From an uncultured Bacteroidales bacterium (GTDB taxonomy: Bacteria; Bacteroidota; Bacteroidia; Bacteroidales; JAGOPY01), in NCBI GenBank assembly GCA_964489545.1, contig CAZAZE010000001.1, positions 337,412 through 401,411 of the forward strand: a stretch of 64,000 nucleotides of DNA, in the 5' to 3' direction. A program made the position numbers and the translations under genes. Positions within the stretch are counted from its first letter, which is position 1; each line of letters begins with the position of its first letter. The notes under the pieces were generated by a model, which saw only the letters and a program-made list of their open reading frames with translations, searched no databases and was not told where the DNA came from. Below, one piece after another: positions 3,345-61,774 of this stretch.

Positions 3345-3408
3345 CTCATTCGAACCAGTGACCCTCCCGACAAGTCGGGATGCTCTAAACCAACTGAGCT
3401 AACAACCC
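3345..3408 (-). pseudogene. tRNA-Val-like fragment A (5' two-thirds of a tRNA, truncated after the T-loop)
   Basis: The first 28 nt are identical to the adjacent tRNA-Val (GGGTTGTTAGCTCAGTTGGTTTAGAGCA). The anticodon arm is TCCCGACTTGTCGGGA, a 6-nt loop or tetraloop. The sequence diverges right after GGTTCGAAT, with no 3' T-stem or acceptor strand. Confidence 0.5.
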
Positions 3409-3413
3409 GAGGT

Positions 3414-3450
3414 CAGGGACGATTGAACAGGGACGATGGACGATGGACCA
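3414..3450. repeat. Short tandem repeat (CAGGGACGAT x2; GGACGAT x3)
   Basis: Direct reading gives cagggacgat tgaa cagggacgat ggacgat ggacca. Confidence 0.8.
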
Positions 3451-3511
3451 TTGATCCTTGCTGGTCGTCATTTTGGTTTGCAAAAGTAATATTTTTTCTT
3501 TCCTATTTCCA

Positions 3512-3519
3512 TATCTTTG
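3512..3519 (+). promoter_or_regulatory. Bacteroidota -7 promoter box (TATCTTTG) upstream of the DPP-IV gene
   Basis: Matches the TAnnTTTG consensus, 19 nt upstream of the ATG at 3538. Confidence 0.45.
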
Positions 3520-3537
3520 GCGCAAAAATTATCATCG

Positions 3538-5718
3538 ATGAAAAAAGCCTTCTTTCTCATCCTTACCGCGATGCTCCTGCACCAGGCCCCGGCCTTCACG
3601 CAGGTCAATGAGATCACCCTGAACGATGTCTTCGCCAGCCGCAAGTTCTTCCCCAAAGGAGTCTATGGCCTGAACCCGATGAAGGACGGGCTCACCTACT
3701 GCGTCCTGGAAGGCGACTCGCTGAATGCATACAACTATGAGTCCGGCGCGTTTGTCAGAAACCTCGTCGACCGCAACCAGCTGGTCCCCGAAGGCGATAC
3801 CGCCGCCATCCCTCTGGGCGACTTCACTTTCAGCGCAGATGAGAAAAAGCTCCTCATTGCCACCGAAACGGAATACATTTACCGCTATTCCTCGGCTTCG
3901 GAATTTTATATCTGGGACATAGAAAAGAAAAAGCTCACCCGCCTTTCCACCGGCGGCAAACAGCGGCTGGCGGATTTCTCACCCGACGGCAGCAAGGTGG
4001 CTTTTGTGCGCGACAACAACCTCTTCCTGGCCGATTTCACCAATAATACCGAATACCAGATCACCCTTGACGGCAAGCAGAACGAGATCATTAACGGGAC
4101 CACCGACTGGGTCTATGAGGAAGAGTTCGCTATCACCAAAGGCTTCGAATGGTCGCCCGACGGAAAACGCATCGCCTATTACCGCTTCGACGAAAGCCAG
4201 GTGAAGGAATTCTCGATGATGGAATGGGGCGCGCTGTACCCGGAGGTGACCCGGTTCAAATACCCCAAGGCCGGGGAGGACAATTCACAAGTGAACGTAT
4301 TTATATACGACGTGGGCGCCCAGCAGAGCACCCCGGTCGACCTGGGCATGGAATCCGACCAGTACATCCCCCGCATCCGGTGGACCAAAAACCCGGATAA
4401 GCTGGCCGTCATCCGCCTGAACCGCTTGCAGAACCTCTTCGACATCCTGATCGCCGATGCCGCCACGGGCCGGACTTCCATGATTTACCGTGAAGACAAC
4501 CCCTACTACATTGAAGATAGCCACTTCGATCACGTGATCTTCATCGACGGAAACCGCTACCTCACCACCAGCGAACGATCCGGCTATTACCATATATACC
4601 TCAATTTCATTGACCTTTCATCGAAAGGCGTGCAGCTCACCAAAGGGGAATGGGACGTGACCGACATTCATGGCTATGATGCCGCCAACGGGTTGATCTG
4701 GTTCAGCGCCGCCACCTCCTCCCCCATCAACCGGGAGCTCTGGACGGTCGACCTGAAGGGCGAAATGAAACAGGTCAGCCGGGAAACCGGGACCCACAGG
4801 CCGCAGTTCAGCACAACCTACAAGTACTACATCAACAATTACAGCGACGCGGCCACCCCGCCGGTCCACACCGTAAACAAGCCCAACGGCAAGGTAATCC
4901 GCACACTTGAAGACAACCAGGCGCTGCGCGACCGGATGGCTGAATATGGCTTTTCGCAGAAGGAATTCTTCACCTTCACCACTTCTGAAGGGGTGCTGCT
5001 TTATGGTTGGAGGATCCTGCCGCCAGACTTCGACGCGGCGAAGAAATACCCGGTACTGATGACCGTCTACGGCGGCCCGGGCTCGCAAACGGTTCAAAAC
5101 AGCTACAGTGCAGGAGATTTTGCCTGGTACCAGATGCTGGCCCGCAAAGGGTACATCATCGCTTCGGTCGATAACCGCGGTACCGGTGCTCGAGGACAGG
5201 AGTTCAAGAAGATGACCTACCTGCAGCTCGGCAAGTATGAGACGATCGACCAGATCGAAGCGGCCAAGTATTTCGCCGCACAGCCTTACGTCGACCCGGC
5301 GCGCATCGGCATCTGGGGCTGGAGCTACGGCGGGTTCATGTCGACCCTCTGCATCACCAAAGGAGCGGATGTATTCAGCACCGCCATTGCCGTGGCCCCG
5401 GTGACCAACTGGCGGTATTACGACAACATTTACACCGAACGTTTCATGCGTACCCCGGCGGAAAATCCCGGCGGATACGACGACAACTCACCCATCAACC
5501 ATGTCGACAAGCTCAAGGGCAATTACCTGGTCATCCACGGCACCGCCGACGACAATGTGCACGTTCAGAACACTATGGATCTTATCTCGGCCCTCAACAA
5601 AGCCGGCAAGCAGTATGAGATGTTCCTCTACCCGAACAAGAACCACGGCATTTACGGCGGCAACACCCGGCTGCATCTTTATACGATGATGACGGAATAT
5701 TTGCTGGATAAACTGTAA
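3538..5718 (+). CDS. Dipeptidyl-peptidase IV (S9B family serine peptidase)
   Basis: N-terminal beta-propeller DPP-IV region and a C-terminal alpha/beta hydrolase with the GWSYGG nucleophile elbow. Signal peptide MKKAFFLILTAMLL. The start is moved to the internal ATG 3538, because the ORF-track start at 3517 overlaps the promoter box. Confidence 0.88.
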   Translation: MKKAFFLILTAMLLHQAPAFTQVNEITLNDVFASRKFFPKGVYGLNPMKDGLTYCVLEGDSLNAYNYESGAFVRNLVDRNQLVPEGDTAAIPLGDFTFSADEKKLLIATETEYIYRYSSASEFYIWDIEKKKLTRLSTGGKQRLADFSPDGSKVAFVRDNNLFLADFTNNTEYQITLDGKQNEIINGTTDWVYEEEFAITKGFEWSPDGKRIAYYRFDESQVKEFSMMEWGALYPEVTRFKYPKAGEDNSQVNVFIYDVGAQQSTPVDLGMESDQYIPRIRWTKNPDKLAVIRLNRLQNLFDILIADAATGRTSMIYREDNPYYIEDSHFDHVIFIDGNRYLTTSERSGYYHIYLNFIDLSSKGVQLTKGEWDVTDIHGYDAANGLIWFSAATSSPINRELWTVDLKGEMKQVSRETGTHRPQFSTTYKYYINNYSDAATPPVHTVNKPNGKVIRTLEDNQALRDRMAEYGFSQKEFFTFTTSEGVLLYGWRILPPDFDAAKKYPVLMTVYGGPGSQTVQNSYSAGDFAWYQMLARKGYIIASVDNRGTGARGQEFKKMTYLQLGKYETIDQIEAAKYFAAQPYVDPARIGIWGWSYGGFMSTLCITKGADVFSTAIAVAPVTNWRYYDNIYTERFMRTPAENPGGYDDNSPINHVDKLKGNYLVIHGTADDNVHVQNTMDLISALNKAGKQYEMFLYPNKNHGIYGGNTRLHLYTMMTEYLLDKL

Positions 5719-30281: not shown

Positions 30282-32270
30282 CTAGTGTTTAGGGTTTAGA
30301 GTTTGGTGCTTAGTGTTTAATGACTGCTGACTGCTGACTGCTGACTGCTGACTGCTGACTGCTGACTGCTGACTGCCCACAGCCACCCGCAGTGTCACCA
30401 GGAAGTTGAACCCGGGCATGGGACGGTATGGGACAACCTGATAATCCATATTGAATATGTTATTTAAATTCATCTGGACGGTCAAAGGCAGGGAATGGCG
30501 CAGGGCCCATGTTTTTGATGCCACAACATCCATAAGAAAGTATCCCGGTAATGAATCCGCATTGTCTTTTGAAGTATAGATCAGACCGGTAAAATTGCCC
30601 CTGAGGAACAGCTCAAATCCCCTGAATGATATTCCTGGACGTACCGACGCCCGATGTATCGGCGTGTATATCAGCTGCTTATGATAGGATTCATCAAACT
30701 CAAACTGCTTCAGCTGGTTGGTCGACCGGGTGAAGGAATAATTGCCGTTGAAGCTTACACCCAGCCGGCCGAACTGCTGCTCATAACCGGTGCTGAGCTC
30801 TATACCCCGCGATAAGACCTTTTGTGCGTTTTCCACGGACCAAAAACTGGCCCCGGGAAGCCAGAGGATCCATCCGTCGACCAGGGAGGTATAGGCTGTC
30901 GCATCAAAACTAAGCCTGACATCCTTCAATGAGGGTTTAAGTGTCACGCCTGCTTCGAAATTCCAGCTCTTCTCCGGCTCGAGTCCGGGATTTCCACCGG
31001 GGACCCAGAAGCGTTCATTCAGTGTCGGGGCCCTGAAATTTCGGGATACGCTCAGGCGTCCGGAAAGGAATTTCCACAGCGGGCCCTGAAAGCCAGCGGA
31101 GAAGAGGAAAGGCGGACGGTAACCAGTCACGAATTCCTGCCGGCCGTTCAGGCTGAATTGCCATTTGAACGGCGTGAAATCATGGCTGAAAGACGCATAC
31201 AGGCTGATCGACTGCTGATCTTCCGCCTGGGCGTAGAAATCCAGGTCGGCAAACTCATAAGTGTACTGTACACCGGCCAGCAAAACGGAACGGGGCGAAA
31301 ATTCCAGGCTGTTCTCTGCGGATGCGGCAGCAGTCTGGCTCCTGATCACGGAGTATACTTCTCCGGAAGGATCCGTATACCGCGTAAATTCATTGAAATA
31401 GGCTATCCGGGCCTCCTGAACCGACTTACGGTTATAGTTCTTCCACGACAGCATGCCGCGCCAGGAGCGGTCGATCTGGCTGGCTTCCGATTCATTCTGG
31501 GTCAGGGTCGGGGGAATATCGCGCCCGGCATACTGAAACCACAGGCTGGCCATCAGGTACTGCTGGCCGGATAATTTAAGAGACAGGTCCTGCAAAAAAC
31601 CGCCGCGTGAAACCGAAGCATGATCCAGCTTATCACGGTTTCCATATAAATCATTATAGGAAAAATCATTCTGTGACCCGTTCAGTGACCAGGCCGTTCT
31701 CGAAAACAATTTTTCACCGGACCATTCCGCGCTCCCTTCGAGGGCAAAGGTGCGAAAACTGCCTGCAGAGAAAGCTGCGGTGATTTTAGCGGCTGAAGGA
31801 CCGAAGACCGGACGGGTGGAAAGGTGCAGGCTGCCGCCGATGGCACCGCTGCCGAATATCGGGCTGGCTCCGCCGTAAAGCAGGGATATATCCTTAAAAA
31901 AGCCGCCCTGTATCAGGGAAAGGTCGACATAACCGATATTGGGCGGGGAAACTCTGATGCCGTTCCAGAACAGGCTGGTATGGTTGGCCGAGGTGCCCCG
32001 AAGAGAAAACGTGGCCAGCGTTCCCTGTCCGTAGTTTCTCACATAAGCCCCGGTGAGGCCGGTCAGTAATTCTGATAAGGTGGCGGCAGGGATCCGCATC
32101 CGGTCCAGGCTGTCGAACGAAACTGACTGTTGCCCTTTGGCATAACGGTTGATCCTTGAAGAAGTGATGTGAACATCCGGGAGCGACAATACCGTATCGG
32201 GCGCGCTATCCTGGCCGCTTGCCGCGACCGCAGCCAGAACCATCAACCATGTCATCAATTTTCCACGCAT
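30282..32270 (-). CDS. btuB: TonB-dependent outer-membrane receptor, vitamin B12 transporter BtuB-like
   Basis: Plug and 22-strand barrel features (TonB box region DTVLSLPDVHITSS; YGGASPIFGSGAIGG). Preceded by a cobalamin riboswitch. The start is set at ATG 32270 (MRGKLMTWLMVLAAVAASG signal peptide). The last 34 codons are repeat-encoded. Confidence 0.88.
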   Translation of the reverse strand: MRGKLMTWLMVLAAVAASGQDSAPDTVLSLPDVHITSSRINRYAKGQQSVSFDSLDRMRIPAATLSELLTGLTGAYVRNYGQGTLATFSLRGTSANHTSLFWNGIRVSPPNIGYVDLSLIQGGFFKDISLLYGGASPIFGSGAIGGSLHLSTRPVFGPSAAKITAAFSAGSFRTFALEGSAEWSGEKLFSRTAWSLNGSQNDFSYNDLYGNRDKLDHASVSRGGFLQDLSLKLSGQQYLMASLWFQYAGRDIPPTLTQNESEASQIDRSWRGMLSWKNYNRKSVQEARIAYFNEFTRYTDPSGEVYSVIRSQTAAASAENSLEFSPRSVLLAGVQYTYEFADLDFYAQAEDQQSISLYASFSHDFTPFKWQFSLNGRQEFVTGYRPPFLFSAGFQGPLWKFLSGRLSVSRNFRAPTLNERFWVPGGNPGLEPEKSWNFEAGVTLKPSLKDVRLSFDATAYTSLVDGWILWLPGASFWSVENAQKVLSRGIELSTGYEQQFGRLGVSFNGNYSFTRSTNQLKQFEFDESYHKQLIYTPIHRASVRPGISFRGFELFLRGNFTGLIYTSKDNADSLPGYFLMDVVASKTWALRHSLPLTVQMNLNNIFNMDYQVVPYRPMPGFNFLVTLRVAVGSQQSAVSSQQSAVSSQQSLNTKHQTLNPKH
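30285..30376. repeat. Composite tandem heptamer array: 5 degenerate GTGTTTA units (30285-30319) plus 8 perfect TGACTGC units (30321-30376)
   Basis: Read directly from the sequence. It fills the btuB / propeller-gene junction and is translated as the btuB C-terminal tail. Confidence 0.95.
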
Positions 32271-32351
32271 GCGCTCAGATGCTCGATTATTTCCGGGGAA
32301 GTGCGATGAAAGACAGAGAAAGCCATTCAACCCGGCCTCTTACCCGGAAGC

Positions 32352-39117: not shown

Positions 39118-39156
39118 AGTTCCCGAACTTAAACCTTAAACCCTAAAACTTAAACC
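39118..39156 (-). repeat. 39-nt dispersed element, copy 1 (reverse orientation): GGTTTAAGTTTTAGGGTTTAAGGTTTAAGTTCGGGAACT
   Basis: Differs at only 2-3 positions from the copies at 41517-41555 and 49694-49732. The ftsY stop codon TAA (39150-39152) lies inside it. Confidence 0.9.
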
Positions 39157-40106
39157 TCCCCAAAGAGGCTGTCCACAAACTCATACCGGTCGAACACCTG
39201 GAGGTCGCCGATCTTTTCGCCGATTCCGATATATTTTACGGGAATCTTAAACTGGTCGGAGATCCCGATGGCGACGCCGCCTTTGGCCGTACCGTCGAGC
39301 TTGGTGAGGGCCAGTGCGTTGACTTCTGTCGCGGCGGTGAATTGCCGGGCCTGTTCGATGGCATTCTGGCCCGTGCTGGCGTCGAGTACGAGGAGCACTT
39401 CATGGGGCGCTTCGGGAATCACTTTCTGGATCACCCGTTTGATCTTGGCCAGTTCGTTCATCAGGTTGATCTTATTGTGGAGCCGTCCTGCGGTGTCGAT
39501 GATCACCACGTCGTAGCCCTGGCTGTGGGCCGCTTTCACTGTATCGAAGGCCACTGCCGCCGGATCGGCGTTCATGCCCTGGGCGATGATAGGCACCCCG
39601 GCGCGTTCGGCCCAGATGGTCAGCTGGTCAACCGCTGCGGCGCGAAAGGTGTCGGCAGCGCCGACCAGCACCGACTTGCCGGCGTTCCTGAACTGATGCG
39701 CCAGTTTGCCGATGGTTGTGGTTTTACCGACGCCGTTCACGCCGACCACCATGATCACATAGGGCCTGGGAAGCGCTTCGGAAGCGAAGTCAAACCGCTC
39801 GCCGGTCTCGTTCTCCTGCAGCAGCGCCGCAATCTCTTCCTTGAGGATGCGGTTCAACTCTTCCGTTCCGATGAACTTATCACGGGCCACCCTTTGCTGG
39901 ATCCGTTCGATGATCTTCAGGGTGGTCTCCACCCCTACGTCGCTGGTGACGAGGATCTCTTCCAGGTTATCCAGCACTTCCTCATCCACGCGCGATTTTC
40001 CGACCAGGGCGCGCGAGATCCTCGAGAAAACGCTTTGGCGGGTTTTATCCAGCCCTTTATCAAGGCTTTCTTTTTTTTCTTTGGAGAAAAACGAAAACAG
40101 GCCCAT
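39150..40106 (-). CDS. ftsY: Signal recognition particle receptor FtsY
   Basis: SRP54-type GTPase motifs GVNGVGKTTT, DTAGR and TKLDG. Confidence 0.95.
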   Translation of the reverse strand: MGLFSFFSKEKKESLDKGLDKTRQSVFSRISRALVGKSRVDEEVLDNLEEILVTSDVGVETTLKIIERIQQRVARDKFIGTEELNRILKEEIAALLQENETGERFDFASEALPRPYVIMVVGVNGVGKTTTIGKLAHQFRNAGKSVLVGAADTFRAAAVDQLTIWAERAGVPIIAQGMNADPAAVAFDTVKAAHSQGYDVVIIDTAGRLHNKINLMNELAKIKRVIQKVIPEAPHEVLLVLDASTGQNAIEQARQFTAATEVNALALTKLDGTAKGGVAIGISDQFKIPVKYIGIGEKIGDLQVFDRYEFVDSLFGEV

Positions 40107-40180
40107 AGCTTTAAAAATATTAATACAAAAAAAGCTCTTCCGGACCGGAAAAGCTTTTTCTGACCGAGTTCATTGCAAGG

Positions 40181-40617: not shown

Positions 40618-41523
40618 ATGAACTGGGAGCCGTATATCAAGGGATTCAAATCATTCCTGAAGCTGGAAAAGTCGCTTTCCGACAATTCGGTGCAAGCCTA
40701 TGCACGCGACGTGGAAAAGCTTTCCCGCTTCATAAAGGAAGCCCATCCCGGCCTCGGGATCCGCGATATCCGCCTGGCTCACCTGCAGGAATTCATCAAA
40801 TGGATCAACCTGCAGGGGATGAATGCCCGGTCGCAGGCGCGGATCATCTCCGGCACCCGGGCTTTCTTCAAGTACCTGGTCCTGGAAAACATCGTCAGTT
40901 CGAGTCCGGCTGAAATGCTTGAGTTGCCCAGGACAGGCCGGGTGCTGCCCGACACCTTGCGGGTGGATGAGATCGAAAAGATGTTTTCGGTCATCGATCT
41001 GAGCACGCCGGAAGGAGAGCGCAACAAGGCGATGCTGGAATTCCTGTATGGCTGCGGCCTGCGCGTGAGCGAGCTGACCAACCTGAGGCTATCCGATATC
41101 CGGCGCCAGGAAGGCTTCATCTCGGTCATCGGCAAAGGGAACAAGCAGCGGCTGGTCCCCATCGGCGGCCGCGCCCTGAAGCAATTTGATATTTACCGTG
41201 AACGCATCCGCAGCCATATTACGCCCCAGAAGGGGCAGGAAGATTTTATTTTCCTGAACAGCCGGGGGAAGAAACTCTCCAGGGTGATGGTTTTCTACAT
41301 CATCAAACAACTTGCCGAGAAAGCGGGGATCCGCAAGACGATCAGCCCCCACACGGTGCGCCATTCATTTGCCACGCATCTGATCGAGGGAGGCGCCGAC
41401 CTGCGCGCCGTGCAGGAAATGCTCGGTCACGCTTCGATCACCACAACCGAGATCTATACCCACCTCGACCGCGACTACCTTAGGAGCAATATCCTGGAAT
41501 TCCACCCCAGAGGGAAGGTTTAA
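40618..41523 (+). CDS. xerD: Tyrosine recombinase XerD
   Basis: SAM-like N-domain plus catalytic HTVRHSFATHLIEGGADLRAVQEMLGHASITTTEIYTH. Confidence 0.88.
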   Translation: MNWEPYIKGFKSFLKLEKSLSDNSVQAYARDVEKLSRFIKEAHPGLGIRDIRLAHLQEFIKWINLQGMNARSQARIISGTRAFFKYLVLENIVSSSPAEMLELPRTGRVLPDTLRVDEIEKMFSVIDLSTPEGERNKAMLEFLYGCGLRVSELTNLRLSDIRRQEGFISVIGKGNKQRLVPIGGRALKQFDIYRERIRSHITPQKGQEDFIFLNSRGKKLSRVMVFYIIKQLAEKAGIRKTISPHTVRHSFATHLIEGGADLRAVQEMLGHASITTTEIYTHLDRDYLRSNILEFHPRGKV

Positions 41524-41609
41524 GTTTTGAGGGTTAAGGTTTAAGTTCGGGAACTTATAATTTAGAACTCCAACTTAAACCTTAAACCTTAAACCTTAAA
41601 CCTTAAAGT
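41517..41609. repeat. 39-nt dispersed element copy 2 (41517-41555) plus an inverted (CTTAAAC)4-5 arm (41564-41609); candidate bidirectional terminator
   Basis: GGTTTAAGTTTTGAGGGTTAAGGTTTAAGTTCGGGAACT, then a loop, then AGAACTCCAACTTAAACCTTAAACCTTAAACCTTAAACCTTAAAG. Both convergent stop codons are embedded in the element. Confidence 0.9.
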
Positions 41610-42061
41610 TCTTCGATGTCGCCTTTCTCATTGATCAGGACGCCCCAGTTTACGGCTACCAGGTCGCCATCCTGGAAGAAAAAGTCGATCATGGCGTCGT
41701 CGTAAGAAACCCTGCGTTCTCCGCTGGTTTCCATTTCGATTTCGGCCACTTCGAATCCTTTGGCCGTCATCAGGGCGATGATGTCCTGCTCAGTCATGTC
41801 GAAGACGTCCTTGCCGTACATTTTCGCTTCAGGGTTTTCGGTTTCAATGCAGGAAACCACCGATTTCTCCCTGCCTTCAAAAAATACGGTCACACCCAGT
41901 TCCCAGTAATACAGGACCACGGTGTTAAATCCGTCATCATCCTCGATATTTTCGACGTCTTCGGGCTGGCCGAGGATGGAGATGACTTTTTCAGATGTTT
42001 CCCCGAAATGGATTTCCCCATAGCCTTTTTTGGGGACGATGTCAAGGGTTAAGGCACTCAT
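41603..42061 (-). CDS. Hypothetical cytoplasmic acidic protein (152 aa)
   Basis: ORF with gene-like composition. No motif recognised. Confidence 0.55.
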   Translation of the reverse strand: MSALTLDIVPKKGYGEIHFGETSEKVISILGQPEDVENIEDDDGFNTVVLYYWELGVTVFFEGREKSVVSCIETENPEAKMYGKDVFDMTEQDIIALMTAKGFEVAEIEMETSGERRVSYDDAMIDFFFQDGDLVAVNWGVLINEKGDIEEL

Positions 42062-48833: not shown

Positions 48834-49694
48834 ATGCCAGGGATTAAACCCACCATCATCGCCTTGCTTATCCTGATCACCGGCACACTGAAATCCCAGG
48901 TCCCGGATTTCTGCCTGACCCGGGATGAATACCGGCTGTACACCCTGATCAATGATTTTCGGGAAAAGCAGGGCCTTCCAGTCGTACCGGTCTCCCGCGC
49001 ACTCTGTTACGTGGCCAAGATCCACGCCCGCGACCTGTATCACAATAACCCCGACACCTCATTCTGCAGCCTGAACAGCTGGTCGGACAAAGGCGAATGG
49101 ACTGCGTGCTGTCATTCCCGCTTCACGCCCAATCCTTCCTGCATCGTCAACAAGCCGAAAGAACTTGCCGGGTACGCCGGCGAAGGGCATGAGCTGGTTT
49201 ACTGGGACAGCCAGGGCAATCACCCGGACACGGCCATGCGTTTCTGGACGAGCATCGCGCAGGCCCGGGAAGTTTTGCTCAATCAGAACAAATGGAGCTA
49301 TTTCAACTGGCGGGCGATGGGCGTCGGCCTGTACCAGGGATATGCCTGCGTGTGGTTCGGAGAAGTGCCGGACACACTTTCCGAGCCTACCTTGTGCGCC
49401 AATGCGGCGGGTTCAGATTTCCTGGTGCTGCCGATGAAAGGAGCGGACATGAAAGGCGTAATTACGGCACCTGAAGGCAGACACTACCTCATCTTCGGAA
49501 GTTTCAACTCATTGGAGGATGCGCAAAAAGTCGCGGAGAAATACCGCAAGGACGGGTTCTACCAGGCTAAGGTTATTGTTAAAGAAAATACGTACAGAGT
49601 GTCCCTTTCCGATCACGCCACGCAGGAAGAAGCTTTGAACGCACGGAAAATGCTTGGCACGGAATACAAAGAAGCCTGGATAACAAAATACTAG
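48834..49694 (+). CDS. CAP (SCP/PR-1-like) domain plus SPOR domain protein
   Basis: N-terminal signal. CAP-like region (LINDFREKQGLPVVPVSRALCYVAKIHARDL). C-terminal SPOR (YLIFGSFNSLEDAQKVAEKYRKDGFYQAKV...YRVSL). Confidence 0.7.
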   Translation: MPGIKPTIIALLILITGTLKSQVPDFCLTRDEYRLYTLINDFREKQGLPVVPVSRALCYVAKIHARDLYHNNPDTSFCSLNSWSDKGEWTACCHSRFTPNPSCIVNKPKELAGYAGEGHELVYWDSQGNHPDTAMRFWTSIAQAREVLLNQNKWSYFNWRAMGVGLYQGYACVWFGEVPDTLSEPTLCANAAGSDFLVLPMKGADMKGVITAPEGRHYLIFGSFNSLEDAQKVAEKYRKDGFYQAKVIVKENTYRVSLSDHATQEEALNARKMLGTEYKEAWITKY

Positions 49695-49783
49695 GTTTAA
49701 GTTTTGAGGTTTAAGGTTTAAGTTGGGGAACTTAAAACCAATGAACTTCAACTTAAACCTTAAACCTTAAACCTCAAAACTTC
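49694..49783. repeat. 39-nt dispersed element copy 3 (49694-49732) plus an inverted copy (49743-49783); candidate bidirectional terminator
   Basis: GGTTTAAGTTTTGAGGTTTAAGGTTTAAGTTGGGGAACT ... GAACTTCAACTTAAACCTTAAACCTTAAACCTCAAAACTTC. The right arm encodes the last residues (VLRFKV) and the stop of sucD. Confidence 0.9.
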
Positions 49784-50638: not shown

Positions 50639-50647
50639 GGCTTGCGA

Positions 50648-50675
50648 GTGTTTAGTGGTTTGTGTTTAGTGTTTA
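50648..50675. repeat. Tandem heptamer array (GTGTTTA x3 plus one variant), equal to TAAACAC on the sucD coding strand
   Basis: gtgttta gtggttt gtgttta gtgttta, ending 9 nt upstream of the sucD start codon. Confidence 0.9.
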
Positions 50676-50804: not shown

Positions 50805-52232
50805 ATGATCTACTCATCCGAAAACCAGACCATATGCGCCATCGCGACGCCGCCGGGCCACGGCGCCATCGCCATCATCCGGGTCAGCGGACCCGAAGCG
50901 CTGCGGATCTGTGAAGCGGTTTTTGTTCCCCGTAAAGCCGGGAAAAACATCACGGAAGCCGCGACGCACACCATCCATTTCGGGACGGTCGAGCACGGCG
51001 AAGAGCTCATCGACGAGGTGCTGGTCAGCGTATTCCGGGAGCCGCACTCTTACACGGGCGAAAACGCCGTGGAGATCTCCTGCCACGGTTCGTCGTACAT
51101 CCAGCAAAAGATCGTCGAACTGCTCATCAGCCAGGGCGCCCGGCACGCGAAGCCGGGGGAATTCACGATGCGCGCCTTCCAGCACGGCAAATTCGACCTG
51201 GCGCAGGCCGAGGCGGTGGCCGACCTGATTGCCGCAGAATCCAAATCGGCCCACGACCTGGCCCTGGACCAGATGCGCGGCGGCTATTCCCGGAAGATCA
51301 GCGCACTGCGCGCCCAGTTGCTCGATTTCGCCTCGCTGATCGAACTGGAACTGGATTTCAGCCAGGAAGACGTGGAATTCGCCGACCGGCCCGCCCTGAT
51401 CAGGCTGCTGGAGGAGATCAAACCGGAGATCGTTCAGCTGGTTTCTTCCTTCTCCTACGGCAACGTGCTCAAGACCGGGATACCCGTGGCGATCGCCGGG
51501 CGGCCGAATGTCGGGAAATCGACCCTGCTCAATGCCATCCTCAACGAAGAGCGGGCCATCGTTTCGGAGATCCCCGGCACCACGCGCGATACCATTGAAG
51601 ACACGATCATCGTCAGCAATTTCGCCTTCCGGTTCATCGACACTGCCGGCCTTCGTCATTCCACCGACAAAATCGAGAACCTGGGCATCGAGAGAACCCA
51701 CGAGAAGATCCGGCAGGCGGCGATTGTTTTGTATGTGTTTGATGTTCGTGATGCCGAAGGCGAAAGGTTCCTGAACCAGTTCCAGGTTCCAGGTTCCAGG
51801 TTCCAGGATATTGATGAAGACCGCCAACTTCCGGCTGCTGACGACACGAAATTCATTTTCATTGGGAATAAATCCGATCTGCTCGAGGAGACGCCTGCCC
51901 ATTTAAAAGAACTTTTAGAAAAGCAATGCATTTTTATTTCCGCGAAACGCAAGGAGAATATCAACCTGGTCCTGGACCGGCTGGTGGAGACCGTCAGCGG
52001 GATGAACATACAGGACCGGACGGTGGTTTCCAATGTCCGGCATTTTGAAGCGCTCACAGAGGCCGGCAAAGCGGTTGACGCAGTGCTAAGCGGGCTGCAG
52101 GCCGGCCTGAGCGGCGACCTGCTCACGGTCGATCTTCGCAGCGCCCTGTTCCACCTGGGCACCATCACCGGGGAGATCACGACCGATGAGATCCTGGGGA
52201 ATATTTTCGGGAGGTTCTGTATCGGAAAGTAG
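50805..52232 (+). CDS. mnmE: tRNA modification GTPase MnmE (TrmE)
   Basis: G1 GRPNVGKSTL, G3 DTAG, G4 NKSD, and the C-terminal FCIGK tetrapeptide. Contains an in-frame heptamer-repeat insert between G3 and G4. Confidence 0.95.
   Translation: MIYSSENQTICAIATPPGHGAIAIIRVSGPEALRICEAVFVPRKAGKNITEAATHTIHFGTVEHGEELIDEVLVSVFREPHSYTGENAVEISCHGSSYIQQKIVELLISQGARHAKPGEFTMRAFQHGKFDLAQAEAVADLIAAESKSAHDLALDQMRGGYSRKISALRAQLLDFASLIELELDFSQEDVEFADRPALIRLLEEIKPEIVQLVSSFSYGNVLKTGIPVAIAGRPNVGKSTLLNAILNEERAIVSEIPGTTRDTIEDTIIVSNFAFRFIDTAGLRHSTDKIENLGIERTHEKIRQAAIVLYVFDVRDAEGERFLNQFQVPGSRFQDIDEDRQLPAADDTKFIFIGNKSDLLEETPAHLKELLEKQCIFISAKRKENINLVLDRLVETVSGMNIQDRTVVSNVRHFEALTEAGKAVDAVLSGLQAGLSGDLLTVDLRSALFHLGTITGEITTDEILGNIFGRFCIGK
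51778..51807 (+). repeat. Intragenic tandem heptamer array (AGTTCCA, then GGTTCCA x3, then GG) inside mnmE
   Basis: Read directly from the sequence. It encodes QFQVPGSRFQ and is preceded by the palindrome GGTTCCTGAACC. Confidence 0.9.
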
Positions 52233-52287
52233 GACTGTAGGACGGTAAGACGGTAAGACGGTAGGACGGTAAGACGGTAGGACGGGG
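52232..52287. repeat. Tandem octamer array (RGACGGTA x7), starting at the last base of the mnmE stop codon
   Basis: ggactgta ggacggta agacggta agacggta ggacggta agacggta ggacgggg, followed by GCATTAAAA. Confidence 0.92.
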
Positions 52288-60288: not shown

Positions 60289-60315
60289 GCAGCAGTCAGC
60301 AGCCAGCAGTCAGCG
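60289..60315. repeat. Degenerate tandem heptamer array (GCAGTCA/CAGCAGT type)
   Basis: gcagcagtcagcagccagcagtcagcg begins 12 nt after the upstream stop. It is the same unit as the btuB-tail array (reverse complement of TGACTGC) and is followed by TTCATTAAA. Confidence 0.8.
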
Positions 60316-60373
60316 TTCATTAAATGACATTTCAATTTCAAGCTCAATCTAAACTATCAACTTTAAACTTAAC

Positions 60374-60401
60374 TTTGATCTTTGAACTTTGAACCTTGAA
60401 C
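60374..60401. repeat. Tandem heptamer array (TTTGATC, TTTGAAC x2, CTTGAAC), ending 4 nt before the rarA ATG
   Basis: Read directly from the sequence. Confidence 0.85.
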
Positions 60402-60405
60402 TGCA

Positions 60406-61672: not shown

Positions 61673-61707
61673 TTAAGGTTTAAGGTTTAAGGTTTAAGGT
61701 TTAAGTT
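61673..61707. repeat. Tandem heptamer array (TTAAGGT x4 plus TTAAGTT), starting 2 nt after the rarA stop
   Basis: Read directly from the sequence. It is the same unit as in the 39-nt dispersed element. Confidence 0.95.
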
Positions 61708-61732
61708 TAATTTTACACTAAGCCCTGAGCCC

Positions 61733-61774
61733 TAAACACTAAACACTAAACACTAAACACTAAACACTAAACAA
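61733..61774. repeat. Tandem heptamer array (TAAACAC x5 plus TAAACAA), ending 6 nt before the kdsA ATG
   Basis: Read directly from the sequence. Confidence 0.95.

Follow-up and report, generated by a model that had tools for sequence, protein, structure and literature searches.

The 79-nt spacer between the convergent genes xerD and ORF152, within a 64,000-nt stretch of an uncultured Bacteroidales genome (the whole of which is called the window here), is repeat throughout and consists of two tandem-heptamer modules based on the unit GGTTTAA that stand head to head. The module belongs to the known, unexplained intergenic heptanucleotide tandem repeats, which resemble those termed long simple sequence repeats (LSSRs) or short tandemly repeated repetitive sequences (STRRs), and is neither a new kind of mobile element nor a demonstrated terminator. 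The spacer is probably best read as two copies of the module meeting by position, among heptamer repeats that fill the spacers of this genome. Three features stand out: the fixed order of units over 39 nt, the strict anchoring at gene boundaries, and the retention at orthologous junctions beside relatives that have no module.

Layout and fold of the xerD/ORF152 spacer

The two genes, the two modules and the loop between them (placed by the minimum free energy, MFE, structure) are arranged as follows.

40618-41523, plus strand: xerD, site-specific tyrosine recombinase, stop codon TAA at 41521-41523
41518-41523, plus strand: last codon of xerD (GTT) and its stop TAA, inside the first heptamer
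41517-41555, plus strand: xerD-side module, GGTTTAA GTTTTGA GGGTTAA GGTTTAA GTTCGGG AACT
41556-41563: 8-nt AT loop separating the facing modules, TATAATTT
41564-41609, minus strand: ORF152-side module, read on that strand as ACTTTAA (GGTTTAA)4 GTTGGAG TTCT
41603-42061, minus strand: ORF152 (open reading frame of 152 aa, no Pfam family), stop codon TAA at 41603-41605 in the outermost unit

A preliminary description, made from the letters of the window, had the extent of this spacer, its repeat content and both stop codons right, with the xerD stop in the first heptamer and the ORF152 stop in the last. It also correctly placed an AT loop of 8 nt before an arm of four to five CTTAAAC units: Tandem Repeats Finder (TRF) gives (CTTAAAC)4.9 at 41574-41607 with 100% matches, and the MFE fold of 41510-41615 is a single long imperfect hairpin whose 8-nt loop, UAUAAUUU, lies at 41556-41563. 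The hairpin is stable on both strands (dG -44 kcal/mol, z -6.6 on the plus strand; dG -36.4 kcal/mol, z -4.9 on the minus strand), its stem of about 40 bp is AU/GU-rich, and none of 200 shuffles folds as well. The 39-mer at 41517-41555 has a second copy at 39118-39156 on the minus strand (3 mismatches) and a third at 49694-49732 on the plus strand (2 mismatches), as had been noted, against no match in 100 shuffles and a chance expectation of 0. All three copies are real, but the one at 39118 is one-armed and forms no hairpin (z +0.77), and an array at 61673-61710 had been missed.

The repeat between xerD and ORF152 is a systematic assembly breakpoint. Logan contigs with identical XerD or ORF152 (L001 and L018-L027, from at least eight sequencing runs) all end 21-25 nt into the spacer, and every short-read assembly examined breaks there. 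Because these contigs from other samples cover just the outer 21-25 nt on each side, the centre of the spacer is read from the window assembly alone. The ORF152-side arm has three GGTTTAA units in two other samples (L024/L025) and four in the window, while ORF152 itself is identical.

A module anchored at gene boundaries

Further copies of the module in the window lie at these positions.

39118-39156, minus strand: single-arm module between the ftsY stop (GAG GTT TAA) and the GTG start of rimO
49694-49732, plus strand: module 3' of a SPOR-domain gene, sharing its first G with that gene's stop TAG (49692-49694)
49752-49782, minus strand: module 3' of sucD, whose stop (49760-49762) lies within it
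61673-61710, plus strand: (GGTTTAA)5.6 directly 3' of the rarA/mgsA stop, single arm

A search of 185,579 species-representative genomes (GTDB; the window's own species lies outside this set) with the non-simple portion of the 39-mer, TTAAGGTTTAAGTTNGGGAACT, located it in one other genome, an uncultured Bacteroidales metagenome-assembled genome (MAG; L002). A metagenome scan returned five further contigs (L003-L007), and additional copies are present on contigs that encode XerD orthologs (L008-L011, L013). Eighteen copies from the window and seven other contigs, aligned on the end motif, share a common order of variant units, with GTTTTGA in second place, and a common end. Their consensus runs from the gene end through GGTTTAA-type units, including a GT(T/G)TT(G/A)(A/G) variant, to GG TTTAAGT(T/G)(C/G/T)GGG and then (A/T)A.... 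The conserved 39-nt module is thus a real higher-order element and not a set of independent slippage products. Copies within one genome share variants (AGTGTTRRGG in L003, GTTCGGGTA in L008), which points to homogenisation within the genome. The palindrome AAGTTC-GG-GAACTT was considered as an operator or mini-terminator and rejected, since GTT[C/G]GGG alone is conserved across genomes and the second half is not.

All GGTTTAA-family arrays seen (about 22, including about 16 non-orthologous ones) have their 5' GGTTTAA end at a gene boundary and their GTTSGGG end towards the spacer. The boundary may be a same-strand stop codon or, in both L003 and L007, either a tRNA 3' end or the 5' end of an oppositely oriented tRNA gene; tRNA gene ends anchor arrays just as protein-gene ends do. 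A strict model in which every module is a sense tail 3' of its gene was rejected, given the modules that abut antisense tRNA 5' ends (L003, L007) and the two-armed copy in L003, and because of the tRNA 5'-end cases the rule was widened: the G-rich strand runs outward from the gene end beside it. Over the 192.6 kb formed by the window and its relatives, the G-rich strand of compositionally skewed arrays points away from the nearest gene in 14 cases and towards it in 4 (p=0.03).

Two-armed copies are in the minority, with 4 against about 13 single-arm copies in this small sample. The spacing of their arms varies (about 18, 19, 41 and 60 nt), and their loops share no homology. The one-armed copies, at 39118, at 61673 and at the majority of positions on the other contigs, are followed by other heptamer families and have no inverted arm; folded as RNA, a single arm is no more stable than its shuffled versions (z +0.1 to +1.5). 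A hairpin arises solely where two modules face each other, as in the 49694-49782 copy between the SPOR-domain gene and sucD (dG -36.6, z -7.5). When convergent genes each carry a copy, the copies are therefore inverted relative to one another, and their shared unit order allows them to pair into a hairpin. The xerD/ORF152, SPOR/sucD and L002 hairpins are all explained by placement in this way.

Relatives also have modules after ftsY, xerD, ORF152 and sucD; at these junctions they carry the module itself, different heptamers or octamers, or no array. L008 (XerD 71% identical) has a module of its own at ftsY, at xerD and at the ORF152 ortholog, with unit counts similar to those of the window (5/5, 5/5 and 6/6, respectively). 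In that contig a small gene of the 23S_rRNA_IVP family separates the xerD and ORF152 modules, and each still adjoins its own gene. L009-L011 (XerD 76% identical) carry the module 3' of the xerD stop and end within it. L013 (XerD 73% identical; from the MAG of L002) instead has (TTCCAAA)4(TTCCAGA)4 after the xerD stop and (TTCCAGGG)7 after the ftsY stop, together with two tandem GGTTTAA modules 3' of sucD that have no inverted arm. L014 shows (TTAAAAA)4 after the ftsY stop, and L017 has (TGAAACT)n ahead of the ATG downstream of xerD. L015/L016 (XerD 76% identical) have identical convergent synteny and a spacer that is also 79 nt long but contains zero repeats; their XerD ends HPRGK*, their ftsY overlaps rimO, and the L015 spacer has a weak, non-significant fold (z -1.6 and -1.0). 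The ORF152 orthologs in L008, L013, L015 and L017 share the same end position. Depending on the genome, the same conserved core-genome junctions thus hold a defined module, unrelated heptamers or octamers, or ordinary sequence of equal length. GCA_025491015.1 is one relative without arrays at these sites.

The module is missing from 2.9 million viral contigs that were scanned. Plain (GGTTTAA)n of 3 to >15 units occurs in 17 unrelated viral or giant-virus contigs (L028-L044), in no case with the GTTSGGG end; these contigs differ widely in G+C and some of their arrays are mixed, for example with (GGTATAA)n in L029. We count such sporadic arrays as uninformative.

Heptamer families and the coding ends they reach

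The preliminary description of the spacer was correct but overlooked that several heptamer families fill the spacers of this genome. The window contains nine period-7 arrays and 0-1 of every other period from 4 to 12 (TRF and period scan); across the 192.6 kb there are 37 period-7 and 9 period-8 arrays, with 0-1 at other periods. At least five heptamer unit families are present in the window, each in either orientation, and three or more head-to-tail 7-nt units occur at 41574-41607 and in four further TRF arrays.

GGTTTAA family: 39118, 41517, 41574, 49694, 49752 and 61673 (TRF intervals 39128-39157, 49693-49722, 49752-49782 and 61673-61710)
CTAAACA/TGTTTAG family: 30283-30319, 50647-50675 and 61732-61773; the last, on the plus strand, is (CTAAACA)6 and ends 7 nt 5' of the kdsA ATG
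GCAGTCA family: 30321-30376, minus strand, (GCAGTCA)8; second copy at 60290-60314, plus strand
CTTTGAA family: 60359-60402
GTTCCAG family: 51779-51807
Octamer (GTAGGACG)7: 52229-52285, plus strand, with the mnmE stop codon in the first unit

The arrays neighbour ordinary core genes (ftsY, rimO, xerD, the SPOR-domain gene, sucD, mnmE, rarA and kdsA), lie in spacers or overlap last codons, start at or a few bases from stop codons and end 4-8 nt 5' of start codons. G-poor arrays of the CTAAACA and CTTTGAA types stand in sense orientation 4-8 nt 5' of the ATG of kdsA, sucD, a DUF5074 gene and rarA. The array at 60359-60402 contains TAACTTTG, which would fit the Bacteroidetes -7 promoter pattern, TAnnTTTG. 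One array is intragenic: (GTTCCAG)4 at 51779-51807 lies in frame within mnmE and encodes QFQVPGSRFQ in the variable loop just before the NKSD (G4) motif. In L007, the spacer between tRNA-Gly and tRNA-Leu (3380-3700) holds a chain of GTTGAAG, AATTTTG and TTAAACC types between canonical terminators.

The arrays alter annotated C-termini. Each GGTTTAA unit carries TAA on both strands, so the earlier suggestion that the module delivers a stop codon, while true in that both stops lie in units, is nearly trivial. Among 120 XerD orthologs the protein is conserved up to HPR[AGS] and mostly ends HPR[AGS][KR], whereas the window has HPRGKV. Of the C-terminal PRGKV, whose origin had been left between native and element-derived, ...HPRGK is therefore native and the array supplies just the final V and the stop. 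Taken as an array footprint, a C-terminal ...KV* holds for the XerD proteins P0097 (L008) and P0004 (L009-11) and fails for P0099 (L012), where the KV end is due to chance (AAA GTA TAA, no array). FtsY ends ...GEV*, with an array at its stop codon. SucD ends ...HEVLRFKV*, with the last four residues, RFKV, and the stop encoded by the array, while the L017 ortholog ends ...KEILGN*; the sucD stop of L013 likewise falls within an array. MnmE retains its native C-terminal CIGK (...CIGK*), its TAG being part of the first (GTAGGACG) unit. The largest change concerns a TonB-dependent receptor ORF (30282-32330, minus strand), which reads through (GCAGTCA)8 to a stop in the next, CTAAACA-type array; the last residues of this protein, about 31, are repeat-encoded and the extension is probably artificial. 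The TonB-receptor spacer of L013 (2011-2124) holds related, diverged arrays, (CAGTCNN)n and (CAACATT)n, suggesting that arrays are inherited and drift in concert.

Origin, possible roles and known repeats

If the spacer is what we hold it to be, two module copies brought head to head by their genes, arrays of this kind would arise and change size by replication slippage, an origin supported by the 7-nt polymorphism between samples. Recombination may homogenise them or copy them between loci, and the arrays would keep growing until halted by selection acting on coding sequence and on start regions. A long AU-rich hairpin would form in the xerD and ORF152 transcripts, where it might act as a local 3'-end barrier or processing site by blocking exonucleases, being cut as double-stranded RNA or impeding RNA polymerase; such an effect would not be what the module is conserved for. 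Several points weigh against this account. The 39-mer is too specific to have originated repeatedly by slippage, so that some way of copying from locus to locus is required; the analysis identified none. In L003, the two-armed copy at 143-278 is located upstream of a tRNA gene, not between convergent genes. Similar unit counts kept at orthologous tails, despite XerD identities of 71-76%, hint at selection for a function, which a view of the arrays as neutral filler leaves unexplained. The sample is also small (about 190 kb) and was partly found via the end motif, which biases which copies count.

The preliminary description took the spacer for a dispersed module like a repetitive extragenic palindromic sequence (REP) or a MITE (miniature inverted-repeat transposable element). 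Such an element, or a REPIN, would replicate as a two-armed hairpin through a transposase acting in trans, for example a REP-associated tyrosine transposase (RAYT), and leave single arms as decayed remnants. There is likeness to REPs and REPINs, which are short extragenic repeats often found after stop codons, whose inverted doublets form hairpins in single-stranded DNA or mRNA and which form genome-specific populations. The module is indeed dispersed and conserved, its 39-mer being kept across several loci and genomes; the arms at 49694-49782 are near-perfect mirror images down to the variant unit GTTTTGA; the L003 copy is two-armed outside a convergent gene pair; and the genome-specific variants in L003 and L008 suggest copying within a genome. 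REPs are, however, imperfect palindromes, found for the most part in doublets of fixed spacing, scattered at random over extragenic sequence and associated with a RAYT gene (Bertels & Rainey 2011, PMC3116915), and the GGTTTAA module differs in every one of these traits that can be tested. Its copies are mostly singlets, at variable spacing, in a small sample; one arm alone is no palindrome and as RNA does not fold beyond shuffles; its 5' end is in every case placed at a gene boundary; and the consensus end motif is better kept in singlets than in the second arms of doublets. No RAYT (IS200/IS605-type Y1 transposase) or other transposase is encoded among the ORFs of the 64-kb window, no target-site or other direct duplication flanks 41517-41609 or 49694-49782, the copies have no conserved interior, and the viral contigs are devoid of the module. 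In L008, moreover, the xerD and ORF152 arms are parted by a gene, and each still adjoins its own gene. We consider a mobile element of this kind unlikely.

A hairpin selected as a bidirectional terminator, or as a stabiliser of RNA 3' ends for xerD and ORF152, would agree with its high stability on both strands, its position exactly between the two convergent stop codons and the similar arrangement at a second convergent pair, SPOR/sucD. The weak fold of the repeat-free ortholog spacer also means that a repeat hairpin could add insulation, and Rho-independent terminators share with it a stable hairpin directly after a stop codon, common to both convergent genes. Their G+C-rich stem and U-tract are missing here: no U-tract comes after either arm (AAGUUCUUCG on the plus strand, CCUUCCCUCU on the minus strand), and the AU/GU-rich stem is not among the calls of the terminator scan. 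The same scan does call a canonical example nearby.

40126-40162: canonical bidirectional intrinsic terminator downstream of rpmG-DUF4295, with a 17-bp stem, an A-run before it and a T-run after it

The organism therefore uses ordinary terminators. Rfam gave no family above its gathering threshold; matches at a permissive threshold were to miRNA-precursor models alone (24-37 bits against 66-230) and were rejected as spurious. In view of the missing U-tract, the AU/GU stem and the lack of a terminator call or an Rfam family, the hairpin is regarded as a consequence of module placement. In L007 one array is found downstream of a tRNA gene's canonical terminator, a single-armed module stands within the ftsY-rimO operon junction, where termination would do harm, and L015/L016 manage without repeats. 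A terminating role is not favoured as the likely purpose of the module, and on this evidence selection for such a hairpin seems quite unlikely.

More speculative still, the GGTTTAA...GTTSGGG module and the start-proximal families could form an actively maintained system, be it a gene-boundary code or the work of an enzyme devoted to making or copying arrays at gene ends. This would explain the variant-unit order, the strict orientation and the retention at ftsY, xerD, ORF152 and sucD, and a boundary code would be read by a putative single-strand nucleic-acid-binding protein of Bacteroidales; we regard the proposal as improbable. The most doubtful of the alternatives, in our judgement, sees the arrays as multivalent platforms for such a protein at the post-transcriptional level, with GGUUUAA repeats in 3' trailers, G-poor CUAAACA-type repeats in 5' leaders and the convergent hairpin as an incidental result. 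Strict orientation to the ends of protein and tRNA genes alike, unstructured single arms that suit single-strand binding, and the keeping of position, family and unit count at orthologous junctions all agree with it, as does a similar proposal for TAACTGA repeats (PMC4679880). Yet no candidate protein was identified, the arrays are patchy among close relatives, unrelated units are interchangeable at one junction, copy number differs between strains, and the array that follows a canonical terminator should be little transcribed.

Placement of module copies among spacer-filling repeats remains the reading we prefer, and it has practical consequences beyond the breakpoint described above. Annotated C-termini change by one residue in XerD, by the last four in SucD and by about 31 in the TonB-dependent receptor, and repeats between convergent genes create RNA duplexes of about 40 bp that could affect mRNA processing. 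Why heptanucleotides are abundant in some bacteria has been a question for decades, and this Bacteroidales clade provides a natural comparison of unusual clarity. Heptamers of the STRR type are said to have been described in cyanobacteria by Mazel et al. in 1990. As reported in two later papers (Mrazek 2007, cited in PMC4679880 and PMC4692102), heptanucleotides are the most abundant long simple sequence repeats in many bacteria and polymerase slippage has been proposed as their cause. The searchable literature does not mention a GGTTTAA repeat.

TAACTGA and mixed heptamer arrays are known from Beggiatoaceae, Cyanobacteria and five Bacteroidetes (MacGregor 2015, PMC4679880). Like the arrays described here, they are abundant intergenic direct repeats with a sporadic phylogenetic distribution, often stand in one fixed orientation within a few nucleotides of start codons, mix families within one spacer, vary between strains by indels in 7-nt steps and break assemblies. 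Their unit is a different one, the GGTTTAA family is found at stop codons and not at start codons, and neither the head-to-head hairpin nor the conserved order of units over 39 nt is described there.

A close parallel in placement is provided by two repeats described by Rehm et al. 2015 (PMC4692102), GGGAATC in Xanthomonas and GGGGA(C/T)T in Nostoc, which are likewise intergenic tandem heptamers and are seldom found within coding sequence or between genes that diverge. In Xanthomonas the sense strand is the G-rich one where an array lies within 50 bp of a stop codon or overlaps it, the antisense strand where it lies just 5' of ORFs, and each genome has 70-75 convergent pairs with stem-loop potential, at conserved sites and with variable length (PMC4692102). 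The GGTTTAA family shows the same placement of the G-rich strand, four convergent pairs and retention at the same genes with variation in length and sequence. G-quadruplex formation, the property stressed for Xanthomonas, is not expected of GGTTTAA because the unit has no G-tract. What distinguishes the Bacteroidales repeats is a fixed higher-order module of variant units with a GTT[C/G]GGG end, in an uncultured host that carries several unrelated unit families side by side.

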